From NCBI RefSeq assembly GCF_963921235.1, contig NC_086108.1, positions 86,244,001 to 86,308,000 of the forward strand: DNA of 64,000 nt. Reading direction: 5' to 3'. Below, in pieces: positions 7,123 to 58,119 of the stretch (the first letter of the stretch is position 1; each line of letters starts with the position of its first letter). The position numbers and the translations under genes were made by a program. Source of the stretch: Mobula hypostoma (lineage: Eukaryota). Below the pieces are notes generated by a model, which did not search any database, had not been told where the DNA came from, and saw only the letters and a list, made by a program, of their open reading frames with translations.

Positions 7123-7610
7123 AGCAACACACACAAAATGCTGGAGGAACTCGACATGTAACGCAGCATTTGTGGAAAGAAGTGAACAGTCAACATTTCA
7201 TCAGGCCCTGAAAGGAAGCGAGCCAAAGTGAGAACAAAAGAATAGAGATAGGGGAATGGTGCAAGAGCTGGCAGGTGATAGATGCATCCAGATGAGGGAA
7301 GAAGAAAGGGGGGTGGTGGGGGGTGGGGGGAGGGAATGATGTAAAGTGGAAGGGGCAAGAGGCTGAAGAAGGAATATGATAGGAAAGGGCTCTAGACCAT
7401 GGAATAAAGGAAAGTAGGTGAGAACCAGAGAGAGGAAGAGGAAAGTTATGCATAGGTCATGAAGATGGGAGAAGAGAAGAAAATGAGGTAATGAGGCCAT
7501 GAAGATAAGGGAAATCAAAGAAACTGGAGTAACAAAGAGGAGAGGTTACCAGGGCATAGAAAAAGCATGTTGATGCCATCCTGTTGGAGACTGTAGGGTA
7601 ATGAAATTGC
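7123..7610 (-). mobile_element. Penelope-like element 3' fragment with a collapsed hammerhead motif
   Basis: Shares the acacacaaaatgctggaggaactc terminus and purine-rich UTR with 9256-10335. Minus strand reads cctgatgaaatgttgactg (stem II deleted). Confidence 0.78.
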
Positions 7611-7809: not shown

Positions 7810-9254
7810 TTGGTGACTCTAATGCTCTAGGATAATTCCAGAGTTACTGAACACGTTGGCCAATGCAGATGCTTTGAAACTGGCGGAGTTTTGGAAGCAA
7901 AATGCTATCATTCCGTTTGTATAAGCTGAGGCCAAGTTCACAAGAAATTTACCAGAGGACACCAAATATTTCTGTGTGGTAGCTTTGCTCAACACTCCGT
8001 GGTTGCAAGAGTGGAGAGTCTACTAGAACACCCACCTGAACACAATAAATACAAATCACTGAAAACTCACCTTTTACGGACTTTTAGACTATCGGTTGTG
8101 AGCGTGCCAAACAGTTGTTCTCCTTGCCTAGCCTCAGTGATGTTAAGCCACCGGAGTTAAAGGACCACATGCTGTCTCTCTTGGGGAGTCGCCATCCTTG
8201 TTTTATTTTTAAAGAAGTCTTCATGCAGCAAATGCCTGATCAATTTCATATAGCCTTTACTAATGCCCCGTGATGGACTTTCGGGAGTCTAAAATGGCTG
8301 CTAGTTCACACTCCGCTAGGCAACAATGCATCATTCCTCTTCCTTTCCCAATCTCAATAACCCCAGTCAGCAAGGCCACCAACATAAAGACACTCATAGC
8401 TGTGAAACTGACTTTGCCAGCTCTTAGTTTTTACCACACTTGCTAGTAAGTGGCGACTACCTTGCAGCTTTGACAGTACCAGCGCATCAGGACATCAGAG
8501 GTCTGTGAATACCATGGATTCCAGCTGCTAAACTTGTCTACTGATCAATTGTGACAACGTTTCAGGGTGATGTTTCCTGTGTGACATGGGAGCTCAAGTG
8601 AGTGTGCTGCCAGCATCACCTATCGATGAGGAGGCAAAGAGCAACAAAACCTCACTGGAGGCCACCAACAGCAGTAGGATCCAGACGTACGGGACATGAC
8701 AGGTGACACTGTGCTTCAGTGGGCGATGCTACACATGGGACTTCATCCTGGCTAAAGCGGCTAGACCTCTACTCAGTGCAGATTTCCTGTGCGCCCCAGG
8801 ACTGTTAGTCGATCTGAAGAACTGCTGGCTTGTGGATGTCAAGGACTTTGTGTCGTTACCCTGCTCCCCCAGTAAGTTCCCCACAATGACTCTGTCAAGC
8901 GCATATACCACTACATGTGAGTTTTTTCGAATGCTGGGTGAATTCCCAAACCTCACCAAGCCCATGTTCTTCACTACAGTCACAAAACATGGGGGTCAAG
9001 CACCACATTCCCACAACTGACCAATGAGTATATGCCCATGCACGTAGACTGGACTCAGAAAAGCTGGCAACCGTGAAGGTTGAGCTTGCTAACACTGAAA
9101 GACATTGTATGCTGTTTGAATAGCCCCTGGGTTTCACCACTCCATGTGGTCCCTAAGCCCGATGGTGGCTGCCGTCCACTTGGTGATTTCTGAAGCCTTA
9201 ATTAGGCCACCGTGCCCAATCGTTACCTGGTCCCACACATCCAAGACTTTTCAT
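7810..9254 (+). mobile_element. Ty3/Gypsy (CsRn1-like) internal fragment: decayed gag-protease-RT start
   Basis: Gag-like LKLAEFW..AEAKF at ~7872; protease FLCDMGAQVSVLP at ~8573; RT SPWVSPLHVVPKPDGGCRPLGDF..LN..TVPNRYLVPHIQDF at 9122-9252; PBS-like tggtgactc at ~7811. Truncated by a PLE. Confidence 0.8.
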
Positions 9255-9255
9255 A

Positions 9256-10335
9256 AACAAGAGACAACCTGCAGATGCTGAAAATCCAAATAATACACAC
9301 AAAATGCTGGAGGAACTCAGCAGGCCAGGCAACATCTATGGAAAAAGTTGACATTTCAGGCTGAGACCGTTCAGCAGGACTGTAAAAAGAATGATGAGGA
9401 GTAGATTTAGAAGGTGGAGGGAGGGGAGAGAGAAACACAAGGTAATAAGTGAAACTTGGAGGGAGGGATGAAGTAAAGAGCTGAGAAATTGATATGTGAA
9501 AAAGATATAGGTTAGAGCAGGGAGAGTCCGATAGAAGAGGACAGAAGGGGAGAGGAGCACCAGAGGGAGGAGACAGGTGGACAAGGAGATAAGTTGGGAG
9601 AGGGAAAAGGGGATGGAGAATGGTGAGGTGGGGGAGGGCATTACTGGAAGTTCATGAAATTGATGTTCATGCCATCAGTTTGGAGGCTACCCAGACAAAA
9701 TATAAGGTGTCATGCCTCCAACCTGAGTGTGGCCTCATCACAACAGTAGAAGAGGCCATGGAGTGACATATCAGAATGGTAATGGGTTGTGGAATTAAAA
9801 TGGGTGGCACTAGGAGATCCAGTATATGACCCCAACATACTTACAGGTGAAGTGTCACCTCACCTGAAAGGACTGTATGGGACCCTGAATGGTAGTGAGG
9901 GAGGAGGTGTAGAGGCAGGTGTAGCACTTGTTCCGCTTGCAAGTATAAATGCCACAAAGGAGATCAGTGGAGAGGGACAAATGGACAAGGGAGTCGAGTA
10001 GGAAGAGATCCCTGTAGAAAGCAGAAAGTAGGGGGGGGAGGGAAAGATGTGCTCGGTGGTGGGATCCCGTTGGAGATGGTGAAGGTTATGGAGAATTACG
10101 TGCTGGATGCAGAAGCTGGTAGGGTGGTAGTTGAGGACAAGAGGTACCCTATACCTGGTATGGTGACAGGAGGATAGGATAAGAGCAGATGTGTGTGAAA
10201 TGGAAGAGATGCGGTTTAGGGCAGAGTCAAAGGTGGAGGAAGGGAAGCCCCTTTCTTTGAAAAAGGAGGACATCTCCTTTTGTTCTAGAAAGAAGAGCCT
10301 CATCCTGAGAGCAGTTGTGATGGAGACAGAGGAAT
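9256..10335 (-). mobile_element. Penelope-like element, 3' ~1.1 kb (linker, GIY-YIG remnant, UTR, hammerhead)
   Basis: ORF 9860-10303 (FFKERGFPSS..ALNRIS..RVPLVLNYHP..HLQRDPTT..IFP); 9660-9790 matches the endonuclease C-terminus at 41029-41259. Confidence 0.88.
9345..9382 (-). ncRNA. Minimal hammerhead ribozyme motif, variant core CUGCUGA
   Basis: Minus strand: cagtc CTGCTGA a cgg tctcag cct GAAA tg TC aactt. A6>C and weakened stems. Confidence 0.55.
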
Positions 10336-10977
10336 TTGTGTTTTAAGAAGGGACAGGGTGGGAAAAGGCCTCCGTGTTATTTCTGTGATCTGTTTCTTAG
10401 ACAAGGTAAACACAAAAGGTGATGTAGTTTGAGAGTGGGAGGCTAATATAAGTAAGAGATCAGAGATGACATCTATCACCAATGCAAGAGATGTAGCTGG
10501 ATTACAGGAAATGGCAGTCAGCAGAGGAAGTTATATTAGTGTGAGGAACTTCTCAAGAGAGGAACAGGGGGTAGTGAACCCAAGGTGGAGAAGCTGTATG
10601 AATGAGATGAAGTTTTAAATCATGGTTTCATGTGCATGCTAAGAATTCAACTCTGCTTCACTGGACACACAAAGGCTCTTCCTTTGCTGTTCCATAAACA
10701 TTATGAACACAACTTTATTAATCTGTTACCTTTGCATCAAATAGATGAAAAAATTGGAGTCAAACAGTTTGAATCAACTTTTGTAGCCTTAAAGGGATAA
10801 TGTTATCTACTGAATTCATATCAATGCTGGATTACTCTGTGAGAGTGCAGTAGTTGAAAACTGTATTGGTCTTGACTGAACAGCACTCTCCTGATATGCT
10901 TCACATTTAGCTCTTAGATATTTGGTCATCACTTGCCTGCACTGGAATGGATTGGTTTAGGCACCTTGATTGATAGA

Positions 10978-20231: not shown

Positions 20232-20940
20232 TTCTGTGGACATAATAGAATCATCTGGATGGTATGCTGTCTCACAAGTGCCAGTGTCAGGGGTGTCTCA
20301 GACTGGGGCCACAGCATTCCAAAGGGGGATGGGGAAGAGGGGGAGCAGCCAGAAGGCTTGGTACATATTGACACAAATGACATGGGTAGAAAAGGTGAGG
20401 AGGTCCTGAGAGAGATCTTAGGGAGCTAGGTAGAAAGCTGTATTAATTGGCGATTGCTGCTTGTGCCATGCGTCATTGAGGGTGAGAATAGGAGCATTTG
20501 GCTGATAAATGCATGATTGAAGAACTGGTGCAGGAGTCAGGAGTTCAGATTTATGGATCATTAGGATCTCTTCTGGGCAACGTACAGACAATACAACAGG
20601 GATGGTTACACCTGAACCCAAGGGAAATGGCCTCCTTGCAGGCAGGTTTGCTGGAGCTATTCGAGAAAGGTTAAAACTAATTTGGCAGTGGTATGGGAAT
20701 CAGGGTAATAAGGCTGAGGATGGGGCAGTTGGTTTACAAACAAAGGCAATGTACAATGTGACTGCTAGCAAGGGCAAGCTGATGATAGGGCAAAATTACA
20801 GTCAACAGGATAGTTCGTGTGATGTAAAAGGGGACAAAATTGAAAAGGGTGACAAATACAGGACTGAAGGTGTTATATTTGAATGCAAGCAGTATACGGA
20901 ATAAGGTAGCTGAACTTGCAGCACAGTTAGAAATTGGCAT

Positions 20941-21130
20941 CATAATCACAAAATACTCTGCAGATGCTGGGGTCAAAGCAACACTCACAACACGCTGGAG
21001 GAACTCAGCAGGTCGGGCAGCATCCGTGGAAACGATCAGTCAATGTTTCGGGCCGGAACCCTTCGTCAGGACTGAAGAGGGAAGGGGCAGAGGCCCTATA
21101 AAAAAGGTGGGGAGGGCGGGAAGGAGAAAA
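20941..21130 (-). mobile_element. 190-bp non-coding PLE-derived insert with a hammerhead
   Basis: Perfect 12-bp TSD agaaattggcat at 20929-20940 and 21131-21142; PLE terminus sequence. Confidence 0.9.
21037..21074 (-). ncRNA. Minimal type I hammerhead ribozyme motif
   Basis: Minus strand: cagtc CTGACGA a ggg ttccgg ccc GAAA ca TT gactg. Perfect stem I (cagtc/gactg) and stem II (ggg/ccc); ACGT palindrome decayed to ACAT. Confidence 0.75.
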
Positions 21131-24089
21131 AGAAATTGGCATGTATGACATCACGGGCATGACTGAATTGTGGCTGAAAAAAGTTTATTGCTGGCAGCTG
21201 AGCATCCAAGGATACATATTGTATTGAAATACAATAGGCAGAGGTGTTGGGGTGGTTCAGTTGGTAAAAATGAAATCAAATCCTTGGAAAGAGGTAACAT
21301 ACTGTAGGATCAGAAGGTTTAGATTTGTTATTTGCTGAGCTAAGAAACTGCAAGTGTAAAAATACCCTGATGGGAGTTATATACAGACCTCAGAACAGTA
21401 TCAAAGATGTGGGCTACAAATTACAATGGGAGATTGAAAACACACGTCAAAAGGGAAATGTTATGATAGTCATGAGGGGTTTCAATATGCAGGTAGATTG
21501 GGAAAATTAGATTGGTTCTGAATCCAAGAGGAGAAATTTAGCTTATTAGAGCAGCTCATGGTTTAATGTAAAGGAAACCAGGGAAGGCAGAGATCATGAT
21601 ATGATAGAATTCACCCTGCAGTTTGAAAGGAAGGAGCTAAAATCAGTTATACAATGGAATAAAGGGAATTATAGAGGCATGATAGAGGAGTGAGCCTAAG
21701 TTAATTGGAAGGCACACCAGCAGGGATGATTGCAGAGAAGCGTTGGCTGGAGTTTCTGGGAGCAGTTCAGAAGGCCCAGGAAAGAAGAAGTATTCTAAAG
21801 GCAGGGTGATGCAACCATGGCTGACAACTGAAGTATAAGCCAACATAAAAGCTAAAGAGAGGGCATGTAATACTGCAAAAACTAGTTGGAAGTTAGAGGA
21901 TTGGAAAGCTTTTAAAAATCAGCAGAAGACAACTAAAAGAGTCATAAAGAGGGAAAAGATGGAATACAAAAGTAAGTTAGCCAATAATATCAAAGAGAAT
22001 ACCAGAAGTTTCTTTAGATATATAAAGAGTGAAAGAGGCAAGAGTAGATATCAGACCACTGGAAAATGATGCTGGAGAGATAGTAACGGGGGCTAGGAAA
22101 TGGCAGATGAATTGAAATAAGTATTTTGCATCAGTCTTTACTGTGGAAGACTCTAACAGTATGCTGGGTGTTCGAGAGTGTCAGCGGGCAGAAGTGAGTG
22201 AAGTTGCCATTACTAGGCGCTTTGCTTGGGAAGCTGAAAGGTTTGCAGACAGATAAATCAAGTGGACCAAATAGTCTACACCCCTGGATTCTGAAAGAGG
22301 TGGCAAAAGAGATTGTGGAGGCATTGCTAATGATCTTTTAAGAAACAATTGATTCTGCCATGATTCCGAAGGACTGGAAAATTGCAAATGTCACTCCATT
22401 ATTCACAAAGGGGGAGAGGTAGAAGAAAGGAAATTATAAGCCAGTTAGAGTGACCTCAGTGGCTGGGAAGATGTTGGAGTTGATTGTTAAGGCTGTGGTT
22501 TTAGGGAACAGATGCACATAATAAAACAGGCCACAGTCAGCAAGGTTTCCCAAAGGGTAAAACTTGCCTAACAAAGCAGTTGGAATTCTTCAAAGATATA
22601 ACAAGTAGGACAGACAAGGGAGAATCAGTTGATGTGTACTTGGATTTTCAGAAGGCCTTTGACAAGGTGCCCACATGAGGCTACTTAACAAGTTAAGAGC
22701 CGATGGTATTAGAGAAAAGATACTAGTGTGGATAGAGCACTGGCTAATTAGCAGGAGGCAAAGAGTGGGAATAAAGGGAGCTTTTTCTGGTTGGCTGCCA
22801 GTGACTAGTGGTGTTCTACAGGGGTCTGTGTTGGGACCACTTCTTTTTATTTTTTCTGTCAAAAATTATTTGAATGACAGAACTGACAGCTTTGTGGCCA
22901 AGTGTGCGGATGATACAAAGAGTGGTGGAAGTGCAGGCAGTGTCCATGGCGCAGAGAGGCTGCAGGAGGACTTCGGCAGATTTGGAGAAAGGGGAAAGAA
23001 GTGGCAGATGGAATAAAGCATAGGGAGTATCTGGTCGTGCACTTTGGTAAGAGTAAAGGCATGAAAGAATTTTCAACATGGGAAGAAAATTCAAACATAA
23101 AGGGACTTGAAAGTCCTCATGCAGGATTCCCTAAAGTTTAATTTGCAGATTGAATCAGTGGTGAGGAAGGCAAATATAATGTTAGCATTCATTTTGAGAG
23201 GACTAGAATATAAAAGCAATGATGTAATGTTGAGGCTTTATAAGGCATGGGAGAAGCCTCATTTGGAGTATTATGAGCAATTTTGGACCTTTTATCTAAG
23301 AAAGGACGTGCTGACATTGGAGAGAGTTCAAAGCAGGTTCATGAAAATAATTCCAGGATTGAAAGATTTATCATATGTTTGTTGGCTCTGGGCCTGTACT
23401 CACCGGACTTCAGAAGAATGATGGGGGATCTCATTAAAACCTATTGAATGTTGAAAGGCCTTGATAGAGTGGATGTGGAAGGAATGTTTCCTATGGTGGG
23501 TGAGTCTAGGACTAGAGAACACAGCCTCAGAATAGAGGGATGTCCATTTAAAACAGAGATGTGGAGGAATTTCTTTAGTCATAGAATGCAGAATATATAG
23601 AATTTGTTGCTACAGGTGACTGTCGAGGCCAAGTCATTGCGTATATTTAAGGCAGAGACTTATTGATTCTTGATTAGTCAGGGCATGAAGGGTTATAGGG
23701 AGAAGGCAGGAAATTGGGGCCAAGTGGGAAACATACCAGCCATGATGAAGTGGCAAAGCAGATTCAATGGGTCAAATGACCTAATTCTGCTCCCATATCT
23801 TTTGGTTTTATGGTCTTAGTGCAATCTATTCTCATTGCCTTTGAAGCATGTACGTGGATCAACCCTTGTTCCTGCAGATGCAAGACCTTTCCCTAACAGC
23901 CTATCTCCCTTATGCAGTGATCCAGTACAGCATCGCACAATCTTGAAGGCCACTCTCTCCCATGCTGTGCTATTCTTCAACCTTTCCCAGAAAAGAATCA
24001 CATCCTGCACAACTGATGCACCTGAACCTATCACAATTAAACTGAGGGAAGAGCCCTCCTTTAATTGGTGCTAGCCACGCACTGTATTA

Positions 24090-25230: not shown

Positions 25231-28200
25231 AACATAGAACATAGAATAGTACAGCACAGTACAGGCCCTTTGGCCCACAATGTTGTGCCGACCCTCAAAC
25301 CCTGCCTCCCATATAACCCCCCACATTAAATTCCTCCATATACCTGTCTGGTAGTCTCTTAAACTTCACTAGTGTATCTGCCTCCACCAGTGACTCAGGC
25401 AGTATATTCCACGTACCAACCACTCACTGAGTGAAAAACTTTCGTCTAATATCCCCCTTGAACTTTCCACCCCTTACCTTAAAGCCATGTCCTCTTGTAT
25501 TGAGCAGTGGTGTCCTGGGGAAGAGGTGCTGGCTATCCACTCTATCTATTCCTCTTATTATCTTGTACACCTCTATCATGTCTCCTCTCACCCTCCTTCT
25601 TCCCAAAGAGTAAAGCCCTAGCTCCCTTAATCTCTGATCATAATGCATACTCTCTAAACCAGGCAGCATCCTGGTAAATTTCCTCCGTACCTTTTCCAAT
25701 GCTTCCACATCCTTCTTATAGTGAGGCAACCAGAACTGGACACAGTACTCCAAGTGTGGCCTAACCAGAGTTTTATAGAGCTGCATCATTACATCGCGAC
25801 TCTTAAACTCTATCCCTCGACTTATGAAAGCTAACACCCCATAAGCTTTCTTAACTACCCTATCCACCTGTGAGGCAACTTTCAGGGATCTGTGGATATG
25901 TACCCCCAGATCCCTCTGCTCCTCCACACTACCAAGTATCCTGCCATTTACTTTGTACTCCGCCTTGGAGTTTGTCCTTCCAAAGTGTACCACCTCACAC
26001 TTCTCCAGGTTGAACTCCATCTGCCACTTCTCAGCCCACTTCTGCATTCTATCAGTGCCTCTCTGCAATCTTTGACAATCCTCTACACTATCTACAACAC
26101 CACCAACCTTTGTGTCATCTGCAAAATTGCCAACCCACCCTTCTACCCCCACATCCAGGTCATTAATAAAAATCAGGAAAAGTAGAGGTCCCAGAACAGA
26201 TCCTTGTGGGACACCACTAGTCACAATTCTCCAATCTGAATGTACTCCCTCCACCATGACCCTCTGCCTTCTTCAGGCATCCCATCCTGAATCCACCTGG
26301 CCAAACTTCCCTGGATCCCATGCCTTCTGACTCTCTGAATAAGCCTACCGCATAGAACCTTGTCAAATGCCTTACTAAAATCCATATAGATGACGTCCAC
26401 TGCACTACCCTCATCTATCTGCCTGGTCACCTCCTCAAAGAACTCTATCAGGCTTGTTAGACACAATCTGCCCTTCACAAAGCCATGCTGACTGTCCCTG
26501 ATCAGACCATGATTCTCTAAATGCCCAGAGATCCTATCTCTAAGAATCTTTTCCAACAGCTTTCCCACCACAGAGTATGGCTGACTGGTCTATAATTACC
26601 CGGACTATCCCTACTACTTTTTTTGAACAAGGGGACAACATTCGCCTCCCTCCAATCCTCCGGTACCATTCCCGTGGACAATGAGGACATAACGATCCTA
26701 GCCAGAGGCTCAGCAATCTCTTCCCTTGCCTCGTGGAGCAGCCTGGGGAATATTCCATCAGGCCCCAGGAACTTATCCGTCCTGATGTATTTTAACTAAT
26801 CCAACTCCTCTTCTCCCTTAATATCAACATGCGCCAGAATATCAACCTCACTCGTATTGTGCTCACCGTCATCAAGTTCCCTCTCATTGGTGAATATCGA
26901 AGAGAAGTATTCATTGAGGATCTCGCTCACTTCCACTGCCTCCAGGCACATCTTCCCACCTTTATCTCTAATCTGTCCTACCTTCACTCCTGTCATCCTT
27001 TTGTTCTTCACATAATTGAAGAATGCCTTGGGGTTTTCCTTTACTCTACTTGCCAAGGCCTTCTCATGCCCCTTTCTTGCTTTTCTCAGCCCCTTCTTAA
27101 GCTCCTATCTTTCTTTCCTATATTCCTCAATAGACCCATCTGATCCTTGCTTCCTAAACCTCATGTATGCTGCCTTCTTCCTCCTGACTAGATTTTCCAC
27201 CTCACTTGTCACCCATGGTTTTTTCACCCTACCATTCTTTATCTTCCTCGCCAGGACAAATTTATCCCTAACATCCTGCAAGAGATCTCTAAACATTGGC
27301 CACATGTCCATAGTACAGTTCCCTGCAAAAACATCATCCCAATTCACACCCGCAAGTTCTAGCCTTATAGCCTCATAATTTGCCCTTCCCCAATTAAAAA
27401 TTTTCCTGTCCTCTCTGATTCTATCCTTTCCCATGATAATGCTAAAGGCCAGGGAACGGTGGTCACTGTCCCCCAGATGCTCACCCACTGAGAGATCTGT
27501 GACCTGACCCGGTTCATTACCTAGTACTAGATCTAGTATGGCATTCCCCCTAGTCGGCCTGTCCACATACTGTGACAGGAATCCGCCCTGGACACACTTA
27601 ACAAACTCTGCCCCGTCTAAACCCTAGGAACTAATCAGGTGCCAATCAATATTAGGGAAGTTAAAGTCACTCATGATAACAACCCTGTTATTTTTGTACC
27701 TTTCCAAAATCTGCCTCCCAATCTGCTCCTCTGTATCTCTGCTGCTACCAGGGGGCCTATAGAATACCCCCAACAGAGTAACCGGTAGGCTCCCCTCCTG
27801 TTCCTGACTTCCATCCATACTGACTCAAAAGAGGATCCTGCTACATTGCCCACCCTTTCTGTAGCTATAATAGTATCCTTGACCAGTAATGCCACCCCTC
27901 CTCCCCTGTTTCCGCCCTCTCTATCCCTTTTAAAGCACTGAAATCCAGGAATATTGAGAATCCATTCCTGCCCTGGTGCCAGCCAAGTGTCTGTAATGGC
28001 CACTACATCATAATTCCATGCATGTATCCAAGCTCTCAGTTCATCACCTTTGCTCCTGATGCTTCTTGCATTGAGGTACACACACTTCAGCCCTTCTACC
28101 TTACTACATTTACACCCTTTATTCTGTTTCTCTTTCCTCAAAGCCTCTTTATAGGTTAGATCTGGCTTTACTCCACACACTTCTTTCACTGCTCTATCGC

Positions 28201-28360
28201 TCTGGGTCCCATCCCCCTTGCAAATTAGTTTAAATGCTCCCGAACCATGCCAGCAAACCTACCTGCAAGGATATTGCTCCCCCTTGAGTTCAGGTGCAAC
28301 CCATCCAATCTGTACAGGTCCCATCTTCCCCATAATAGATCCCAATGATCCAAAAATTTA
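25227..28360 (-). mobile_element. CR1 LINE, relatively young: ORF1 C-terminus, complete but frameshifted ORF2, 3' UTR
   Basis: Endonuclease 27671-28189 (LKCVYLNARSIRSK, YDVVAITDTW), GVFYRPP, LDLVL, GDSDH; RT 26221-26571 and 25424-26257 (SGVPQGSVLGP, FADD, LVRPHLEYC); (tctatgt)n tail. Confidence 0.95.
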
Positions 28361-29526: not shown

Positions 29527-30120
29527 CAAACAACAGGAATTCTGCAGATGCTGGAAATTCAAGCAACACACATAAAAGTTGCTGGTGAACGCAGCAGGCC
29601 AGGCAGCATCCCTAGGAAGAGGTGCAGTCGACGTTTCAGGCCGAGACCCTTCGTCAGGACTAACTGAAGGAAGAGTGAGTAAGGGATTTGAAAGTTGGAG
29701 GGGGAGGGGGAGATCCAAAATGATAGGAGAAGACAGGAGGGGGAGGGATGGAGCCAAGAGCTGGACAGGTGATAGGCAAAAGGGATACGAGAGGATCATG
29801 GGACAGGAGGCCCGGGGAGAAAGACAAGGGGGGCGGAACCCAGAGGATGGGCAAGGGGTATATTCAGAGGGACAGAGGGAGAAAAAGGAGAGTGAGAGAA
29901 AGAATGTGTGTTTAAAAATAAGTAACAGATGGGGTACGAGGGGGAGGTGGGGCATCAACAGAAGCTAGAGAAGTCGATGTTCATGCCATCAGGTTGGAGG
30001 CTACCCAGACGGAATATAAGGTGCTGTTTTTCCACGTCCCATTCCCATTCTGACATGTCTATCCACGGCCTCCTCTACTGTAAAGATGAAGCCACACTCA
30101 GGTTGGAGGAACAATACCTT
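29527..30120 (-). mobile_element. Young Penelope-like 3' fragment with an inverted 5' segment
   Basis: 29570-30034 is close to the reverse complement of ~41180-41660; 30031-30120 is a plus-strand piece (STSHSHSDMSIHGLLYCKDEATLRLEEQ). Confidence 0.92.
29625..29662 (-). ncRNA. Minimal type I hammerhead ribozyme, canonical core
   Basis: Minus strand: tagtc CTGACGA a ggg tctcgg cct GAAA cg TC gactg. GUC triplet and ACGU palindrome present; predicted cut between 29630 and 29629. Confidence 0.85.
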
Positions 30121-31324: not shown

Positions 31325-31846
31325 AGAGCCATTCTATCCCCTCTGCCTACCTACCTGTCCTTTCAATAAAAGATGTATCCTTTGATTTTAAGTTCCCAAC
31401 TATGATCTTCTTTCAGCCATAACTCACTGATGCCCACAACATCAAAACTGTCAATCTCTTAACCGTGTTACAAGATCATGTACCTTATTCTGTACACTGT
31501 ATGCATTCAAATGTAACATCTTCAGGTATGTATTCATCATCCTTTTCAATTTTCCCCCCATTGTTACATTTCACCTCATCCCACTGACTGCAATTTTGCC
31601 CTGTCATGTTCCTGTCCTTCCTCATAGTCTTACTACACACTGAATCAACTTGTATACCACCTGTCCCACCCTCAGGCTTATCACTCCGGTTCTCATCGCC
31701 CAGCCAAATTAGTTTAAACCCTCCCCAACAGCTCTAGCAAACCTTCCCACAAGGATATTAATCAGCCTCATGTTCCAGTGTAACTTGTCCTGTTTGTACA
31801 TTTCATATCCTCCCCAGAAGAGATCCCAGTGATCCAGAAATCTAAG
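31325..31846 (-). mobile_element. CR1 fragment (ORF1 end and endonuclease start)
   Basis: ORF 31709-31906 (RFLDHWDLFWG..DKLHWN..NILVGRFARAVGEGLN) matches the ORF1 end at 20550-20680. Confidence 0.8.
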
Positions 31847-41864: not shown

Positions 41865-43430
41865 GGTTCTGAAAGACTCCGCAGCCCAACTAACTGAGTT
41901 CAACATCTGTCTGTAACAGTCCATTGTCCCCTCAGTTTTCAAGGCAGCAACCATCATTCCAGTGCCAAAGAAAGAGACAGTAACCTGCCTAAATGACTAT
42001 CGTCTGGTGGCATTAACATCAACCATGATGAAAGACTTTGAGTGGCTGATCATGGAGCATATTAAAGCCTTACTCCCAGCTATATTGGACTGATTCCGCT
42101 TCGCTTATCACTCAAGTCCATCCACTGATGATGCAATAACCTCTGTCCCATCCCACCTGGAAAATGGGGTCTTATATGCCTGACTGCTGCTTATAAACCA
42201 GAGTTTGGTGTTTACACCATCATTCCCCCCCGCCCAAAACTGGTGGGGAAACTGTCTTCACAAACAGAAGAAAATCTGCCGATGCTGGACGACCGAGCAA
42301 AACGCACAAAATACTGGAGAAATTCAGCAGGCCAGGCAGCATCTAAAAAAAAGAGTACAGTCGACATTTTGGGCTGAAACACTTCGGCAGGACTAGCTTC
42401 TGTTATTGCTTTTCCCAATCCCGCTGAAGGGTTTCAGCCTGAAATGTCGACTGTACTCTTTTTTTAAGTGCTGCCTGGCCTGCTAAGTTCCTCCAGCATT
42501 TTGTGTGTGTTGCTGGGTAACTGTCCTCTCTGGGTCTCAACACCTCCCTCTGCAAATGGATACAGACTTCCTAGCAGACTTCCTTGTGGGCAACAACGTC
42601 TCTAGTCTCATTACACAGTCGCTCCCCAAGGCTGTGTCCTCAGCCCGTTGCTGTTCACACTGCTGACACCTGACTGCATTACAGGATTCAGCTCAAACCA
42701 TGTCTTCAAGTTTGCAACACAACACTGGTTGGCCTAATCCAGAACCTTGATGAGACGGAGTACAGAAAGGAAGTAGAGTGGCTGCTGGATTGGTGCGAGA
42801 AGAACAGCCTAAGCCTGGAAGTGGACAAGGCCAAGGAAATCACTGTGGAGGTCAGGAAGGTGCAGACAAACCATCCCCCTCTTCGAATACACGGCTCCTC
42901 TATAGGGAGAGTTAAGTGCACCAAGTTCCTGGGAGTTCACATCATGGATGACTTCACCTGGTCCCTTAATATCATCTCCCTGAACAAGAAGGCACAGCAG
43001 AGCCTTCACACATTCGTCAGGAGTGCTGCATATGCAGCACCCTTAGAATTATTAAGGATCCCACCCATCCATCCATTATCCTCTTTGACTTTCTACCATC
43101 AGGCAGGAGACATAAAAACATGAATGGTCATGATTGGAAACTTGTTTCTTCCCTCAGGCCATTAGGCTGCTGGCCTCCCTGCCATATCATATCCAAAATG
43201 TCACTGGTTAATCTGTTCGATACATTACAATATTTAATTAATGCACTTTAGTTTGTTATTGATGTGTGATTTATCTGTAGATTTTACCCTTACCTTCATA
43301 AGCTATTGTGTGTTATGTGCACGACTGTGCTTTACACCCTGGTTTGGGAAACATCTATTTCTATATACAATATATGGTTATATACATTATATACATGCAT
43401 TTAGTTAAATGACAATAAACTCGACATGAC
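41865..43430 (+). mobile_element. Rex1/Babar LINE, decayed RT region and 3' UTR
   Basis: [53 protein letters not shown]; tail aaatgacaataaactcgacatgac. Confidence 0.85.
42259..42514. mobile_element. Foldback PLE-derived insert with two opposed hammerhead motifs
   Basis: Inverted arms ~42296-42393 and ~42418-42514; TSD gggaaactgtctt (42246-42258) / gggtaactgtcct (42515-42527). Confidence 0.85.
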
Positions 43431-43860: not shown

Positions 43861-44127
43861 CCTTCCTTCCGAGAGGCAGCCAGTGAAAATGATCAACGTA
43901 GCAGTCCGCAGAGGAAACAAAACAATAAACAGCACTCTTTCAGATGTCAAAGATGTACAGTACATCATATGCTAGTTCAAAGGGAAATGCCTGGCTAACA
44001 CAAAACTGCACTGGGTGAATTGCAATTGTATCCATGGGACCCCAGTGTGCTGTAGAAAATAATATTAAGCACGGTAGAACAATATTACTTGAAAGAAATG
44101 TTTCGATCCTGATGGAGGTGATTCTAT

Positions 44128-45815
44128 ATGTGAATGTGAATGTGACTGGGTATAAGTGAATGTGCATGTGGGTATACTGGGTATAAGTGAATGTGAGTGT
44201 GACTGGGTATAAGTGAGTGTGAGTGTGACTGGGTATAAGAGAATGTGAATGTGGGTATACTGGGTATAAGTGAATGTGCATGTGGGTATACTGGGTATAA
44301 GTGAATGTGAGTGTGACTGGGTATAAGTGAGTGTGAGTGTGACTGGGTATAAGAGAATGTGCATGTGGGTATACTGGGTATAAGTGAATGTGAGTGTGAC
44401 TGGGTATAAGTGAGTGTGAGTGTGACTGGGTATAAGAGAATGTGAGTGTGACTGGGTATAAGAGAATGTGAATGTGGGTATACTGGGTATAAGTGAATGT
44501 GCATGTGGGTATACTGGGTATAAGTGAATGTGAGTGTGACTGGGTATAAGTGAGTGTGAGTGTGACTGGGTATAAGAGAATGTGCATGTGGGTATACTGG
44601 GTATAAGTGAATGTGAGTGTGACTGGGTATAAGTGAGTGTGAGTGTGACTGGGTATAAGAGAATGTGAGTGTGACTGGGTATAAGAGAATGTGAATGTGG
44701 GTATACTGGGTATAAGTGAATGTGCATGTGGGTATACTGGGTATAAGTGAATGTGAGTGTGACTGGGTATAAGTGAGTGTGAGTGTGACTGGGTATAAGA
44801 GAATGTGCATGTGGGTATACTGGGTATAAGTGAATGTGAGTGTGACTGGGTATAAGTGAGTGTGAGTGTGACTGGGTATAAGAGAATGTGAATGTGGGTA
44901 TACTGGGTATAAGTGAGTGTGAGTGTGACTGGGTATAAGTGAATGTGAGTGTGACTGGGTATAAGAGAATGTGAATGTGGGTATACTGGGTATAAGTGAG
45001 TGTGAGTGTGACTGGGTATAAGTGAATGTGAGTGTGACTGGGTATAAGTGAGTGTGAGTGTGACTGGGTATAAGTGAATGTGAGTGTGACTGGGTATAAG
45101 TGAGTGTGAGTGTGACTGGGTATAAGCGAATGTGAGTGTGACTGGGTATAAGTGAATGTGAGTGTGACTGGGTATAAGTGAATGTGAGTGTGACTGGGTA
45201 TAAGAGAATGTGAATGTGGGTATACTGGGTATAAGTGGGTGTGAGTGTGACTGGGTATAAGTGAATGTGAGTGTGACTGGGTATAAGAGAATGTGAATGT
45301 GGGTATACTGGGTATAAGTGAGTGTGAGTGTGACTGGGTATAAGTGAGTGTGAGTGTGACTGGGTATAAGTGAGTGTGAGTGTGACTGGGTATAAGTGAA
45401 TGTGAGTGTGACTGGGTATAAGAGAATGTGAATGTGGGTATACTTGGTATAAGTGAATGTGAGTGTGACTGGGTATAAGTGAGTGTGAGTGTGACTGGGT
45501 ATAAGTGAGTGTGAGTGTGACTGGGTATAAGCGAATGTGAGTGTGACTGGGTATAAGTGAATGTGAGTGTGACTGGGTATAAGGGAATGTGAATGTGGGT
45601 ATACTTGGTATAAGTGAATGTGAGTGTGACTGGGTATAAGTGAGTGTGAGTGTGACTGGGTATAAGTGAATGTGAGTGTGACTGGGTACAAGTGAATGTG
45701 AGTGTGACTGGGTATAAGTGAATGTGAATGTGACTGGGTATAAGTGAGTGTGAGTGTGACTGGGTATAAGTGAGTGTGAGTGTGACTGGGTATAAGCGAA
45801 TGTGAGTGTGACTGG
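44128..45815. repeat. Minisatellite/satellite array, 26-bp unit gactgggtataagtgagtgtgagtgt with a 31-bp variant
   Basis: About 60 units read directly; the 31-bp variant has gggtatactgggtataag. Confidence 0.97.
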
Positions 45816-46693
45816 TGTTACGAGAATACACATAAAATTAAGATGTTTGCTGGCCTGGGCTAGCATCAGTGGCATCAGCAGTTGGTCTGCCACCTGCCCT
45901 CAGGGGAAGGAGAGATAAGGAACAATGGAGCAGCGTCTGGAGATGTGTAATGAAGGGATGTGGGAGGAAGAGCTGTCTGGAGCGGCTCCCCCCTTTGAAC
46001 CCTGAACTGTTTGAAGTGATGGACAGGCGATACCCCAGCAGGGGGATAAAAAGGGACAGGTTCGCTAAGACAGACACACGCCACCCGAGGTAACGAGACC
46101 CTGGAAGCGGTGCGCTTCTCACGAGTGGGTGAGAAGTGCCAGACAACGACAAGGGTGGAAAGGTACGATCAGCGGGAACCCGGTGTGTGTCCGCCCTTGC
46201 CTGGGTGCCGGGTTCACTGCAGAGGATCGACCGCATCTGGAGGAGGGGTCACAGTCGGTGGCCTCAGGTAACATCACCAAGGACCTGCCCAAAAGCTGTT
46301 TGTGAGCCATCCCGCTGGTCTGTGAGCCATCTTGCTGGTCTGTGAGTGAAGCCGTTCTGAATGATGAGTTGTTCCTATTCTATCTCTCTCTTCCCCCACG
46401 TTGTCCACCGCCATGGCAACGATTACTGCGAACTGAACTACTAAACTGGACTGAACTTTGAGTCATTTTGAAATTGGTCATTTACCCCTAGACAACGACA
46501 GAGCTTGATTGATGCTGTTATCTTAATTCTGTGCACATGTGTGTTTATCATCACTGAACTGTTGCATTTATTATCCTTTCGATTACTGTGTTGCTTGTTT
46601 CTGTAATGAAACTTTCTTAGTTCTAGTACTCCAGACTCCAACTGAGTGATCCATTTCTGCTGGTTTGGCAACCCAGTTACGGGGTACGTAACA
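45816..46693 (+). mobile_element. Solo LTR, 878 bp, inserted in the satellite
   Basis: Perfect 7-bp terminal inverted repeat tgttacg/cgtaaca; 4-bp TSD ctgg at 45812-45815 and 46694-46697; TATA-like gataaaa at ~46045. Confidence 0.92.
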
Positions 46694-46845
46694 CTGGGTA
46701 TAAGTGAATGTGAGTGTGACTGGGTATAAGTGAATGTGAGTGTGACTGGGTATAAGTGAGTGTGAGTGTGACTGGGTATAAGTGAGTGTGAGTGTGACTG
46801 GGTATAAGTGAGTGTGAGTGTGACTGGGTATAAGTGAATGTGAGT
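46694..46845. repeat. Continuation of the 26-bp satellite
   Basis: About 6 more units, in register. Confidence 0.95.
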
Positions 46846-46934
46846 TTATAAATGAAATGGTACAGGCACTTTTTAGCAACGTACACTACTGCGCAAAAGT
46901 CTTTAGGCACGCATAATATATTATCTACCTCAAG

Positions 46935-50346: not shown

Positions 50347-52481
50347 AAACCTCATGTGGATCATGTGGATTTATCTTGGAGAACATGATTGCTCCTTGGA
50401 GATGTTCAAAAGCAGAGGCAAGCAGGGAAAGAGGGTAACAGTTCTTCACTGTGATGTTCTTGAAGGGTTGATAATCAACAGGGATAAAGCTTGCCATCTT
50501 TATTGCTCACAAAAAAGAATGCACACCCCTGCTTGCGAGGTTGATGGACGTATAAAGGCGAATGTCTCTTTAATGTATTCTTCCATAGCCACCATTTCTA
50601 GACTAGAGAGAGAACAGAGCTGGCCCAGGGAGGACTAATGCCATGTAATGAGTCAGTAGTGTAGTTGCATGGTGGATGTGGAGGCAGGGAGGTGGCTTTG
50701 TTTATACTGAAGACCTCAACAAGATCAGTATATTCAGCCAGAACACCATGCAGGACCATACTAGCAGTTGGCACAGGAGGAGATACACTGACTGGGTCTT
50801 GAGCTGGGCACAGACAGGTAGACAGATGTGCCAGCCCCCTCTTGGAGTGCCTTTGGGTACTAGTTAATCTGTGGGTTATGTCAAGATAGCCAGGTAAGGC
50901 CAAGCACCAGTGGCAGTTCAGGGGAATCAACAAGATAGGAGCACTACTTCCTATGGTTGCCTTCTAGTACTAGTTGGAGGAGCTCTGTGGAAACGTGGAT
51001 CTTGCCAGTGCCCAGAGTTTGCCCATCCAGAGCTTTCACATTGATATTCTCTCCCAATTGCTGAGCTGGAACTCTCCATCTTTGAACCACAGAAATATCC
51101 ATGAGGTTCCCAGCTGCTCCAGAGTCAATTATTGCCAGAAGCTCATGAATCTGGGACCTCTACAAGGAAGCTGGGAGCACTATGTGATTAGGGGATGGCG
51201 ATTAGACCCATCGGAATTCCCCTTCCTGCTGATGGGTAACCTCTTTAACTGGGCGTTTGGGACATGCTGCCCGGAAGTGTCCTGGATCACCACAGCAGAG
51301 GCAGCAACCTGTTCTCCTGTGCTGATCTCAATCCTCCTGAGGTTAGTGCATGCACCCCACCTGCATAGGCTTCTCCGTGGACTGGGTTCTGGGTGATGAG
51401 GGAGAGGGTGAGACAGAATGGTATCTAAAGAGTAAGAAATTCAGGACATTCTTTCTCTGTGCCACTCATTGTCTGGTTGTCAACTCGAATGGCCTGATTT
51501 ATTAGGTCCAGCTCGTCATGCACTGTGACTTCATGCTGAACCCCTACACTCAGCCCATGGTAGAAAACAGTGATGAAGGATCTCTCATTCCACTCCATCT
51601 CAACTGCAAGCATATGGAACTTCATTGCATAGTGCCACACTCTTCCCTTCCCTTGGTGCAGGTCCAGGAGTTGATGGGCAGCCTCCCGATCCTGTACTGG
51701 AAGATCAAACACTCTCTTGAACTCAACCTTGAATTGTTGGAAGGACTGGGCTGCAGGGGAACCGTGTGCTGAATAAGCCAACTGCGGTCCACGTAACAGG
51801 TTCACCATGTATGCCAGCTTACACGCTGATCAACAAACTGATCAGGTCGGGCCTGGAAGGTCGGCTCACACTGGGTAATAAAGTCCCAGCAGTTGTCAGG
51901 GTCACTGGAATATCTGCCTGGTGGAGGAATACTCAGTTCTGGTACAAACATGGTTTTGGGAGTCCAGGCATTAGCGGTTGAGGTTGTTGAGGTGTTTGAC
52001 GAGGAGGCTCCGGGAGATGCTGGAAGTGGGACTGTTATGGCTAAAGGCTGCTAAATTAACACAGTGAGAGTGGTAATGGCTGCCACCTGACTCTGCCTGT
52101 CAGTAGAAAGCTGCTGAACTGCAGCCGTGAGAGTAGTAATTGCTGCTTCCTGATTCTGGCTGTATAAGTGAGTTGGCAAATTGTCACTGTGAGGGCTGGC
52201 ACTGCGTGAGCTGGGACTGGGCTTGTTGCTCTGAAAGTTGCTGTTGCGCTGTGTGAAAAATGTCGGCCAATCTAACTTCTGCCGATTTTAGGTTCTCCTC
52301 CACAAACTTCGGTTTGGACTGGGTTTGCCATTCTCAAAGGAGCTGTCACATCGCTTCTGTCACTTCTCCCAACACAGCTTCCACTGATTGTAGCTTCTCT
52401 CCTATCTGACCAATGAATGCTAGAGCCAAGATCAGCTGTTCTCTCTCTGCTGGGTCGATTTTCTTGTTGGTTGAGACATAC

Positions 52482-53675: not shown

Positions 53676-56098
53676 AAATAATACTGTTCGTAGCCTTGGG
53701 CCAGAACGAATGAGAAGCTGACATAGGTCAGTCAGATGAGCCTGAGCCAATGAAATTGAAACATAACTGATTAATTTGATAAGGAAAAGGTTAAGAATGA
53801 AGAATTTTGGTAGTGGAGACAGCAACAATGCTGGAGATCAAACACAGCAGAAGTGGATGACTCATGACAAAAATGTGAATATTTATCAGAATTAAAAGGA
53901 ACTCCTGGCCGGCTCAGACTGCTTTTTCCAGGCATTTCCTTTTCTATGCTTCAGAGAGGGGCAAGGGAAACCTTGTTGGTGTGAACATCGGTATTTAGAT
54001 TTGTATAATTTGCATGCTTGTTCAGTGAGCCAATAAAGGTATTTGTCAGTACATCCAGATAACTGATTATCATTGTTATCATTCTGCAGTAGCTGCAACA
54101 TTACTGTTGCCTACAGTTGAAAGGGACAAGAGATGGTAAGTGGGAGAAGATCTTTGCCTGGACAGCAGGTTCTTGATCCTGGTCAGCATGTCCAATGCCT
54201 ATATTTTTTTTTCTTTTGTCTAGCATATAAATTCAACCTTCTTTCAATTGTTCTTCTCTGCTTCCTCTGGAACCTGGAAAAAGAGAGGGATAGAGAGGGA
54301 TGCTCCTTGGTATACATAGGCAGAGGCAAAACTCAATCTCATTTGTAGCTGTGTCATGAGGAGAGAATTAATGCATTAGGTCAAGGACACTTCATCGTAA
54401 ATGCACCTGCTGGGTTCTCCTGACATATTCTGCTTTTATTTTGGATTTTGAGCAGGTGCAGATTGCTATAATTGCTGTTCTCTATGCAATCACAGATAAG
54501 AGATGGGCAGCAACTTTAAAAAAATCACTATTTTAGTCATTAAAACAAGACAATAAACAAGAAACAGGATTGAGAGAAGCTGCTACAACCACCTAGTGAA
54601 TTCCTCTTTGAAGAAAGAAGAAACAACGTTGTTTACTTTAAATCATTTAATGCAGAGAAATATTGAATGCAGGATTCTCAAGACATGATAGTTGCAGTTC
54701 CTTTGTGGATAGATTTCAATGATGTTTAACATTGGTTTTGGATCCACGGATTCCAATGTGAAATCTATGTATTGTGCAATGACCAATCTATAGGGTAAAT
54801 TCAGAACAACACAAGCATTATTCAAAATTGTGGGCAGAAGAGTGAGCAGAGGTTTGGTGAACCAATGGGAAGGACACAGCAAAATGAATATCAATAAAAT
54901 AGCATGAATTCTGTTAGTAATACAAGCTAATAAATTTAAACCAAAATACAGGCATTTCAGATGCTTCAAGGTATCTATTTAAAAGAAGATTATGCTTTAC
55001 GATTGTGGTTAAATTTTACTTTGTTGAAATAATGAAGTTATTTAAAATTAAAACTCGGTAAATTTTCAGAATGGCATTAGTGTGGAGTTGTAATAGCATT
55101 TATCATTAATTATTGATTTCTTGTGTGTCAGGTTTGCACTAATGTCCATCAGTTCATAATATACAGCTTCATTAAAAACAATGGGGTGAATTGTAAAATT
55201 CTTGAATATGTACAGAAGATGACAATAGACAATTAATTCCCATGCAGGCAGATTGCTGCCTTTGTGTTGCTTGTATCCTGACATGATTGTTGTGTAAAGT
55301 CTTGGCTAACCATTCAGTTCAAAGACTGCAGACTTCAGCCGAGATTTAGATTTTGTCAGCAGCACCTATCACTTAGAGTTAGCTCACACTACTTAAAGCA
55401 GGACAGTCCTTATTAAAAGTAAGACACATTAAGGCAACAGCAATTAGTAACCAGCAATTGGGTAAGGCTTGTCAGGAGACAAAATGCTTAGTGGATATAG
55501 CTACATTGAGTGGAATGGTTGATAATGTTACAAAGAAAAAATGGTAAACCATAGATTAGATAATTTTAAAAATGAGAAGAAAGATGACTGAACATTAGCT
55601 GCCACTTTGGAGCCCCAGGGACACTCAGGGTGTCCAATAAGTGAGTGTAGCCAAACCCATTTCTCATCAATATGTTCATAAAAATGGTGACAACTGCAAA
55701 TTTGCAAACAACACTTAAATATAAAAATTGTAGTCTATAAAAGCATGTAAAATTGCCACAAGAAAACTGATTTTCTCAGCTGTAAAAAAGTATGTTCAGA
55801 GCTTTTCACTTTACCTATTTCTTGCAAAAACAATCCGTGTAAAGACTTCCAGAAATAAGAAAATACTAATTAGTGCTTGTTGCATTCGAGGGTCCTGAGC
55901 TAGAGTGTGGGGGAAGTTTGTGCATGCCCTAATTCCCTTCCTTGAGCCTACTTTGGTTAAATGAATTTTTGTAAGGCACTATATTAGAAATTCTGAATCA
56001 GAATCAGAATCAGGAATAACTAGCATGTGTAATGAAATTTGTATGATGCAATACATGATAATAGAGCTACAAACTGAATTACAGTAAATGTATATGTA

Positions 56099-58119
56099 CA
56101 GTATATACATAAGTATTTACCCCCTTCAAGTCAGTATTTAGTAGATGCATCTTTGGCAGCAATTACAGCCTTGAGTTTGTGTAGATAGGTCTCTATCAGC
56201 ATTGCACATCTGGACTCTGCAATGTATTACCATTCTTCTTTACAAAAATGCTCAGGCTCTGTTAGATTTCATGAGGATCATGAGTGAACAGCCCTTTTCA
56301 AGTCCAGCCACAAATTCTCAATTGGATTGAGCTGTTCCTGACTTGGCCACTCCAAGACATTAACTTTGTTATTTTTAAGCCATTCCTGTTTAGCTTTGGC
56401 TTTATGCTAGAAAACAAATCTTATCCCAAGTTACAGTTCTCTTGTGGACTGCATCAGGTTTTCCTCAGGATTTCCCCGTATTTTGCGGCATTCATTTTAC
56501 CTTCTACCTTCACAAGCCTTCCAGAGCCTGCTGCAGTGAAGCATCCCCACAGCATGAGCAACCACCACCATGCTTCACGGTAGGGATGGTGTGTTTTTGA
56601 TGATTTACGCCAAAAATAGTGTTTAGTCTGATGGTGGAAGACTCAATTTTGGTTTCATCAGACCATAGAAACTTCTTCCAGCTGAGATCAGAGTCTCCCA
56701 CGTGCTCAGAGTCTCCCACGTGCCTTCTGGCAAACTTAAACCGAGATTTCATGTGAGTTTTTTACAACAGTGGCTTTCTCTTTGCCACTCTCCCATTAAG
56801 CTGCGACTGGTGAAGCACCCGGGCAAAGTTGTATGCGTAGTCTCTCGCAACTCAGCTACTGAAGCTTGTAACTCCTCCAGAGTTGTCATAGGTCTCTTGG
56901 TGGGCTCCCTCACTAGTCCCCTTCTTGCATGGTCACTTAGTTTTTGAGGATGGCCTGCTCTGGACAGATTTACAGCTGTACCATATTCTTTCCATTTCTT
57001 GATGATTGACTTAACTGTACTCCAAGGGATATTCACTGCCTTGGAAATTTTCTTGTATCCATCTCCTGACTTGTACTTTTCAATAACCTTTTCATGGAGT
57101 TGCTTGGCATGTTCTTTTGTCTTCATAGTGTAGTTTTTGCCAGGATATTGACTCACCAGCAGATAGACCTTCCAGATATGGGTTTAATTTTACTACTACA
57201 GTCAATTGAAACACCTTGACTGCACATGGTGATCTCCATTTAACAAATGATGTGACTTCTAAAACCAATTGGCTGCACCAGTGATGATTTAGTGTGTCAT
57301 ATTAAAAAGGGTGAATTCTTATGCAATCAATTATTTTGATAATTAAGGAGGAGAAGCTGGCGGCGCGCCTGCGCGTGCGTAGCCTTCTGGAGAAAATGAT
57401 ATCGTATCTGTTAAATGGGGCCGTGGACAATTCTGATTTGATGGAGAATGGACGTGAAAGCACAGAGGAACTTCTGGAGAAATTTCTGAAATGCCCGTTT
57501 GCTGCTGTCGTTACTGTGTGGTCGGGAATCTTTCCGAGGGTAGGCCTCAAAATTGCCTGTTTTTGATAACCGAGAAGGAGGTCAAAGTGTTTGGACAGAG
57601 TTGACGCTCAGTACTCGGTGTTAGAGAGCTGATCAGAATTCAAAGTTTTCAGATGTCTCCGAGTTGGATTGTGGTCGGCATGGCAGGGAGAGTTTTTCTT
57701 CCTTCTCCCATCTGCATGAGATGTGGGACATTTGAGAAACTTTGAACTTTACTGTGCTCACGGACTTCTTCATCAAGTTATGGTATTGTTACACTGTTTG
57801 TAACTGTATGTTATAATTATGTGGTTTTGTCAGTTTTTTCATTCTTGATTTGTCCTCTGTTCTGTGATATCACACCGGAGGAAATAATGTATCATTTCTT
57901 AATGCATGCATTACTAAATGACAATAAAAGAGGACTACGTGTCTTCATAATCGTAATTAAGTTAGCTCACTTTGTAGAGATCTCTTTTCACTGTGACATG
58001 AAAGAGTCTTTTTATTTTGATCAGTGTCAAAAAAGCCAAATTAAATCCACTGTGATTCAATATTGTAAAACAATAAACATGAAAACTTGGGGGGGGGGGG
58101 ATACTTTTTATAGGCACTA
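56099..58119 (-). mobile_element. Tc1 transposon with a decayed transposase
   Basis: ORF 56749-57156 (MKTKEH..GYKKISKAVNIPWSTVKSIIKKWKEYGT, paired-like HTH); ORF 56510-56752 (WSDETKIE, PTVKHGGG); right end atactttttataggcact; left end keeps only a DR-like aagtatttaccccc. Confidence 0.9.
57348..57953 (+). mobile_element. 606-bp non-autonomous retroposon in the Tc1 terminal repeat
   Basis: 8-bp TSD taattaag at 57340-57347 and 57954-57961; CpG-rich head gaggagaagctggcggcgcgc; Rex-like tail ctaaatgacaataaa. Confidence 0.8.

Follow-up and report, generated by a model that had tools for sequence, protein, structure and literature searches.

The window analysed here, 64,000 nucleotides of Mobula hypostoma DNA (contig NC_086108.1), contains at positions 20941–21130 a 190-bp non-coding segment that carries a hammerhead motif. 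An initial annotation left the origin of this segment between two readings, an extreme 5' truncation of a Penelope-like element (PLE) and a member of a retrozyme-like non-autonomous family mobilised by PLE enzymes. The question raised by the locus is thus whether the segment is a fragment of an autonomous element or a unit of a family of its own.

Insertion into a CR1 element

The 12-mer AGAAATTGGCAT is present in identical form at 20929–20940, on the element's 3' side, and at 21131–21142, on its 5' side. It occurs only these two times in the 64-kb window, and the match cannot be extended in either direction. At any one position, an exact 12-mer would arise by chance with a probability of about 1e-7, which rises to 2e-4 if 40 × 40 positions of slop are allowed. 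However, four exact 12-mer pairs lie 100–400 apart in the window, outside satellite sequence, so that the AGAAATTGGCAT repeat alone is only suggestive. (A satellite array of 26- and 57-bp units, with long spurious open frames, occupies 43900–46850.) By comparison of sequences, the decisive evidence for insertion is a paralogous CR1 copy on the minus strand (31361–31726), in which the target occurs once: the alignment has a clean gap of ≈201 bp, with AGAAATTGGCAT at both edges.

The host is a decayed CR1-type LINE on the plus strand. It runs into the start of an AP endonuclease at 20633–20928, at 70–83% to the paralog (31461–31755), and its endonuclease resumes beyond the insert at 21143–21290, at ≈73% to the paralog (31361–31460). 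When translated, both flanks correspond to the N-terminus of a CR1-type endonuclease, and a Pfam Exo_endo_phos match (E = 4.7e-7) was found in a more distant CR1 copy at 27671–28255. The flank translations and the paralog agree with the location in a CR1 endonuclease region given by the initial annotation.

Contigs from four of the 23 sequencing runs listed (49,586, 46,287, 29,554 and 2,932) were aligned to 20681–21400 at 85% likeness. X1, X5 and X10 are DNA runs, and X17, with 2,932 contigs, is guessed to be RNA, although none of the listed runs is recorded as RNA; since contigs carry no information on strand, level, ends or locus, X17 indicates family presence only. The 5' junction is bridged by a 203-nt contig of X1 (21083–21285; depth 11.3, one difference), which rules out an assembly artefact. 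X1 may be the window's own sample, and the bridging contig excludes assembly error only. Among the matches listed, no X5 or X10 contig crossed an insert junction. Joints that skip the insert were seen in the sequencing runs; they come from other CR1 copies, and the insertion could not be dated by orthologous empty sites. The observed/expected CpG ratio is 0.61 in the insert, compared to 0.27 and 0.10 in the flanks, as would be expected of an insertion younger than its surroundings.

The 190-bp insertion is therefore confirmed, together with the perfect 12-bp target-site duplication (TSD) that had been claimed for it, by the exact match, the single target in the CR1 paralog and the X1 contig across the 5' junction.

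Anatomy of the insert and its hammerhead

Read on the minus strand, the insert consists of 59 nt of pyrimidine-rich pLTR sequence upstream of the hammerhead core, a minimal type I hammerhead, a conserved terminal block and a tail of 35–40 nt. The short UTR piece, the hammerhead and the PLE terminus of the initial annotation could thus all be identified.

The tail and the 3' terminus occupy 20941–20976, with an end that is uncertain by a few bases. They were assigned by a tail profile and by a step in the summed contig depth of the four runs at 20944/20945, from 27 thousand to 774 thousand. An optional tail of 30–40 bp has been described for PLEs (PMC11167929, PMC8557442). Here, the tail was detected in four of the 11 window copies (the insert, which is copy A, and those at 29.5, 9.3 and 42.3 kb), from which the profile was made; the profile gave no match under E = 0.4 in the remaining copies, of which copy H may retain a degraded piece. 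The conserved terminal pLTR block (20977–21035, minus strand) is common to all subfamilies and has the greatest depth in all four runs. A profile built from ten window copies found 11 such ends at E ≤ 2e-11 and nothing further under E = 0.5, the next match having E = 0.51. (Two sub-threshold matches to PLE end or tail profiles, at 54398–54466 and 62339–62423, had E = 0.5–1.1 and are perhaps much older copies; the former matched PLE sequence by blastn with E = 5e-5.)

At the other end, 21076–21128 (minus strand) is truncated upstream pLTR, or 3' UTR, that aligns with the longer window copies and with the consensus of loose contig ends in X5 and X10, from which it differs, as from the family, by a two-G deletion near 21112. 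The family consensus diverges past 21128, and the two junction bases at 21129–21130 are neither family nor TSD and were probably added without a template. Of the 190-bp module proposed at the outset, the insertion itself thus stands, but its last two bases are not family-derived.

At the 5' arm of helix I, a pyrimidine tract that terminates in CAG (21072–21096, minus strand) is a candidate splice acceptor of a pLTR intron, based on comparison of the copies. Tract and YAG are both present in five of ten copies examined (A, B, C, D and H), and F1 has the YAG without the tract. A PLE intron in D. virilis ends at helix I (PMC4209133). Copies F1 and G start within a few bases of the putative acceptor, which could reflect splicing or a stop in reverse transcription. 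A TATA-like AT block at 21097–21105, TATAAAAAA when read on the plus strand (antisense to the element), is separated by ≈30 nt from the hammerhead core on one side and from the insert's 5' end on the other; other subfamilies have an AT-rich block at an equal distance, with different letters. A two-way TATA has been noted in the pLTR (PMC3846280), and the D. virilis Penelope promoter is described as TATA-less (PMC2377424). The GC content of the insert is 0.537. A global RNA structure was considered and rejected, since the whole insert folded no better than its shuffles (z = −1.41).

The hammerhead (21036–21075, minus strand) was delineated by a descriptor, by folding and by the alleles of the family. 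Helix I (21075–21070/21041–21036) has six Watson–Crick pairs, and is followed by the core CUGACGA at 21069–21063 and one extra (bulged) base. Helix II (21061–21050) has four base pairs, including one G-U, and GAAA at 21049–21046. Stems I and II are therefore intact, as the initial annotation held. Helix III, which it did not mention, is of the zero-loop kind and is disrupted at 21044: opposite C15.2 stands A, where pairing would need G. The cleavage site is predicted after 21042 (U17). The pairing base at 21044 is carried by 77%, 76% and 90% of the depth in X1, X5 and X10, respectively, and the change in the insert has the form of CpG decay. The self-duplex of the insert has a predicted energy of −1.1 kcal/mol, compared to −3.5 for copies B and C. 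At position 17, U is the majority base (35%, 35% and 2% of the depth differ in X1, X5 and X10), and it is thus a trait of the subfamily and not damage.

The descriptor, which was composed after the motif had been seen and did not require helix III pairing, matched none of 20,000 dinucleotide shuffles of the insert and three sites in the window (21069, 29657 and 41570). The ensemble probability of helices I and II is only ≈0.36. A search of the whole window with Rfam gave no matches at gathering scores, and a search of 20900–21200 gave three chance-level matches (E = 2.3–3.3), none to a hammerhead family. This shows that the minimal type is missed by Rfam, not that the motif is absent.

The closest known ribozymes are the minimal hammerheads (min-HHRs) in the pLTRs of metazoan PLEs, including the fish elements Xena, Poseidon and Neptune (Cervera and de la Pena 2014, PMC4209133). 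These share with the insert the type I topology, the extra base between 9 and 10.1, the G10.1–C11.1 pair and the lack of a loop 3. Their palindromic 15.2–16.2 positions, through which they must dimerise for what is a weak cleavage, are found in the majority of the insert's family and were lost in the insert. Helix I (6 bp) and helix II (4 bp) of the insert have canonical sizes, whereas the corresponding helices of Schistosoma min-HHRs have 4–5 and 7–8 bp. Min-HHRs occur mostly as single motifs and were linked by their authors to truncated PLEs; no ray family is named in the passages of that paper bearing on these elements. From its letters, the hammerhead of the insert would be a passenger from the pLTR of the parent element and, being present only once and having since mutated in helix III, is unlikely to cleave.

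The ratio of summed depth in X17 to that in X1 is 2.1–4.6% downstream of the predicted cleavage site, 0.45–1.1% over and upstream of the hammerhead and ≈1% in the CR1 flank bins checked. This contrast is a lead only, since little can be measured reliably from contig depth and the downstream part is also matched by older subfamilies.

The Penelope family in the window and in sequencing runs

The 11 window copies have widely differing 5' boundaries. Counted from the hammerhead core, the long copies begin at about −973 (D), −544 (C), −465 (B, at 29.5–30.1 kb), −388 (H) and −327 (E), and the short copies at −59 (the insert), −52 (J), −20 (F2), −6 (G), −5 (F1) and +32 (I), the latter being accurate to a few bases only. 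Six of the 11 are shorter than 200 bp; five of these begin no more than 60 nt upstream of the core, and three within ≈25 nt of it. Five of the 11 ends reach GIY-YIG coding sequence: tblastn matches copies D, C, B and E to PLE reverse transcriptase/GIY-YIG proteins, and DNA similarity to E shows that H extends into the final endonuclease codons. A continuous spread of 5' ends into GIY-YIG sequence had been put forward as the mark of ordinary truncation. Such a spread was largely found in the window, but the window copies are only 73–78% identical to the insert over the core and belong to other subfamilies.

Of 64 candidate proteins, 22 matched the peptide of copy C (at 41 kb), with Mobula hypostoma (92% identity) and Hypanus sabinus giving the best matches. 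Weak Pfam GIY-YIG matches were found in five of six homologues scanned (E = 2.7e-4 to 8e-3; 16.9–21.6 bits, all below the 22.6 cut-off), and Pfam found nothing in the two PLE fragments of the window that were searched. The best homologues have a YIDD-type reverse transcriptase motif. They also have, like copy D, the motif CKRNKCYTC (CX4CxxC) ahead of the endonuclease (P0001–P0002). A CX2-5CxxC motif marks Neptune and Nematis among PLEs with a C-terminal endonuclease, and is a mark of Naiad too (PMC8557442), and the parent element looks like an endonuclease-bearing, Neptune-like PLE.

Over the core region, the insert is 78% and 75% identical to the copies at 29.5 and 41.5 kb, which are 93% alike. 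Judged by these identities, it is a member of a subfamily distinct from the other window copies, in keeping with the distinct sequence noted initially. A Mobula hypostoma gene model includes a stretch in which 31 of 32 residues are identical to the antisense frame of the insert, and represents the same subfamily at what seems to be another locus. A protein search with this open antisense frame gave three matches, none of which reached upstream. The conserved family pattern had no matches in viral, metagenome or prokaryote genome contigs.

A clear TSD was found at two of the ten loci searched, the insert and an inverted pair at 42.3 kb; a 9-bp match with one mismatch at the 41-kb copy is doubtful. 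The pair (42246–42525) consists of two very short PLE ends arranged head to head, 42257–42394 on the minus strand and 42409–42514 on the plus strand, with its own 11-bp TSD (one mismatch) and a tail on one side only. In copy B, the 5'-most 91 bp (30030–30120) are endonuclease-coding and inverted relative to the rest of the copy, which constitutes a 5' inversion. Copy D (9251–10352) is the longest in the window, and reaches the C-terminal region of the reverse transcriptase, with frameshifts and a deletion in the GIY-YIG core. (Open frames at 51425–51829 and 56749–57183, on the minus strand, resemble a retrotransposon gag fragment and the N-terminus of a Tc1-type transposase, respectively.)

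The sequencing runs allowed the insert's own subfamily to be followed beyond its 5' end. Summed depth collapses at 21113, from 564 thousand to 1.8 thousand, and loose ends are present at 21112 in X5 (40 contigs, agreement 0.68) and X10 (21 contigs, agreement 0.78). These have two extra G, match the insert to 21128 and then share 11 of 12 letters in both organisms. On the element strand, this continuation matches copy H at 7264–7277, which lies 60–73 nt upstream of the H core, in identical register. (The motif search behind this match gave eight matches where 5.45 were expected, and only the register of this one is informative.) The subfamily thus appears to extend upstream of the insert's 5' end with pLTR sequence, and not with the unit's own 3' end. 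A shared pLTR continuation past 21128 fits truncation, and not a 190-nt circle, although the subfamily itself was followed for just 12 letters past this point.

The fall in depth at 21113 might be taken to prove a shared boundary; we rejected it as proof because of the two-G indel at this position and the like continuation of the loose ends. The median length of the loose ends is 17–19, i.e., they would end near 21128 (these are the loose ends among the matches listed, with 2,096 more). We ascribe the drop and the short loose ends to the indel and to short contigs; a preferred boundary near 21128 would look alike.

The family is very abundant. Summed depth in X1 is 0.56–5.4 million over 20945–21112, compared to ≈11 at the unique junction; the resulting ratio, ≈4.8e5, is not a true copy number. 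It would correspond to roughly 5e4–1e5 copies close to the insert and 5e5 in all subfamilies, and the density in the window (11 per 64 kb) extrapolates to 4e5 ends. No joint from 21130 to 20941, as in a tandem, was found among the 15 + 12 joints listed (371 + 51 more). A backward joint from 21112 to 21076, with six letters between, was present in X1 at a depth of 359; it excludes the hammerhead and may represent a short duplication or an inversion in some family copies. Alleles at 21042 (35%) and 21075 (43%) that are common in X1 and X5 are nearly absent in X10 (2% and 0%), which suggests a subfamily that expanded in only some of these organisms.

Origin of the insert

Taken together, the insert is probably one 5'-truncated, dead-on-arrival 3' end of an abundant autonomous, endonuclease-bearing (EN+), Neptune-like PLE, made by target-primed reverse transcription. 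This is the extreme truncation of the initial annotation, and is supported by the empty site in the CR1 paralog, the scattered 5' ends (from about −973 to +32), the five of 11 copies that reach coding sequence, the upstream pLTR shared with relatives that continue past the insert, and the tail in four of 11 copies. Among the points against it, the copies extending into coding sequence belong to other subfamilies (75–78% to the insert over the core), and the 5' starts near the core are more clustered than a smooth decay would suggest.

From the known biology of this class, the GIY-YIG endonuclease of the parent would have nicked the decayed CR1 copy. Its reverse transcriptase would have primed on the target and begun at the distal of two start sites, a start that would account for the presence of the tail. 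From there, copying of an unspliced template would have run past the terminal block and hammerhead, to halt 59 nt upstream of the core; the pair of additional bases may have come in at the joining step, and a staggered second nick, once repaired, would have produced the 12-bp duplication. The priming steps, the splicing state and the inactivity of the insert are the inferred parts of this account; the insertion, TSD, homology, family continuation and helix III change are observed.

Such products have precedents. Most PLE insertions are truncated to one terminal repeat (bioRxiv 10.64898/2026.07.22.740005), Penelope copies can be flanked by TSDs without terminal repeats (PMC2377424), and truncated, single-repeat, TSD-flanked copies and solo min-HHRs are known (PMC4209133, PMC2377424, bioRxiv 10.64898/2026.07.22.740005); PLE insertion structures like those in the window have also been described (PMC8557442, PMC3846280). 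EN+ PLEs of the Neptune/Nematis type (Craig et al. 2021, PMC8557442; Arkhipova et al. 2013, PMC3846280; Schostak et al. 2008, PMC2377424) share with the insert strong 5' truncation, an optional tail of 30–40 bp and a TSD of ≈8–12 bp. With the ray family they share inverted neighbours, seen here in other window copies, and a CX2-5CxxC motif before GIY-YIG, seen in the longer relatives. We find no difference in kind between the insert and the insertions described there, its clade being placed, provisionally, by the motif. The Poseidon element PAc of Anolis carolinensis (Frangieh et al. 2024, PMC11167929) also has a hammerhead near the pLTR end and two classes of 3' end separated by a tail. The tail in four of 11 window copies, one-sided in the 42.3-kb pair, matches the two start sites and optional tail of PAc. 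PAc differs in its clade and in its hammerhead-to-3'-end distances (≈90 and 125 nt from the core in the ray family). Cleavage by its hammerhead was dispensable for insertion in vitro.

Other routes to the same structure were weighed against truncation. It is unlikely, in our view, that a PLE enzyme started inside the RNA, just behind an upstream pLTR, and ran off at the RNA 5' end or a strong stop, and there is equally little to be said for the corollary that fixed-length hammerhead modules were made in this way repeatedly from the autonomous transcript. Since this route would give a sharp 5' boundary without a separate family, such a boundary alone is no proof of one. Internal initiation near the ORF start has been shown in vitro for the anole Poseidon (PMC11167929), five of the 11 window copies begin 5–59 nt upstream of the core, and the depth drop and the loose ends of 17–19 letters are compatible with it. 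However, the boundary of the insert is shared in the window only roughly, by J (−52), which is of another subfamily. The D. virilis element has a 75-nt intron, 46 nt beyond the start site (PMC2377424), which runs up to helix I (PMC4209133), and by analogy −59 would fall inside the intron and not at an RNA start. No pile-up of molecule starts or ends was reported, though contigs cannot show one. The insert would quite improbably be a solo pLTR, left when a partial tandem (truncated pLTR, ORF, pLTR) collapsed by recombination between its repeats. Partial tandems are the usual PLE arrangement (PMC8557442), a perfect TSD would survive the recombination, and solo pLTRs have been noted, there without TSDs (PMC3846280). 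On the other hand, this requires a second, rarer event, whereas short TSD-flanked copies form directly (PMC2377424) and the 42.3-kb inverted pair represents very short direct products.

The retrozyme-like family of the initial annotation, in which the insert would be a monomer or fragment of a pLTR-derived non-autonomous non-LTR retrozyme, made by PLE enzymes on a multimeric or circular RNA template, found no positive support and is very improbable. Metazoan non-LTR retrozymes (Cervera and de la Pena 2020, PMC7229834; Li et al. 2026, bioRxiv 10.64898/2026.07.22.740005) do resemble the insert in being non-coding, with a type I hammerhead, pLTR ancestry, a length of 150–450 bp and a TSD of more than 4 bp, which 190 bp and a 12-bp TSD fit. 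Those of vertebrates are pLTR-derived, occur as dispersed monomers and are present in the one chondrichthyan genome sampled, with a mean consensus of 363 bp (bioRxiv 10.64898/2026.07.22.740005), and the backward joint in X1 (21112 to 21076, depth 359) may also count in favour of this reading. Against this, the locus holds a single unit with no tandem repeat, and no end-to-start joint is among the 27 listed (422 more). The pLTR upstream of the 5' end leaves no place for a 190-nt circle, though a longer unit is possible. The ends of the insert are set by the PLE tail, where longer copies also end, and by truncation, unlike the ribozyme-to-ribozyme units of retrozymes. Its hammerhead is of the minimal PLE type and damaged in helix III, its GC content is 54% compared to the <50% described, and as a whole it folds no better than shuffled sequence. 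We also give little weight to a SINE-like reading, in which a ray PLE subfamily of ≈50,000–100,000 copies consists mostly of short hammerhead-plus-tail modules with a preferred 5' boundary. It is as doubtful that such modules are run-off copies or trans-mobilised pLTR-only transcripts, dispersed as monomers without tandem arrays or circles.

We found no description of this ray PLE family among the paper listings searched. As a truncated PLE end, the insert is an ordinary but clean example of a Penelope insertion of this kind. The single locus matters little, and the family is more useful than the copy: several hundred thousand ends, by rough arithmetic, would make up a very large natural data set in rays. 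Such a data set would inform where PLE reverse transcription starts (with or without the tail) and where it stops (5' ends relative to the hammerhead and the splice acceptor). A SINE-like element dependent on Penelope would be indicated only if the 5' ends turned out to be sharply fixed.
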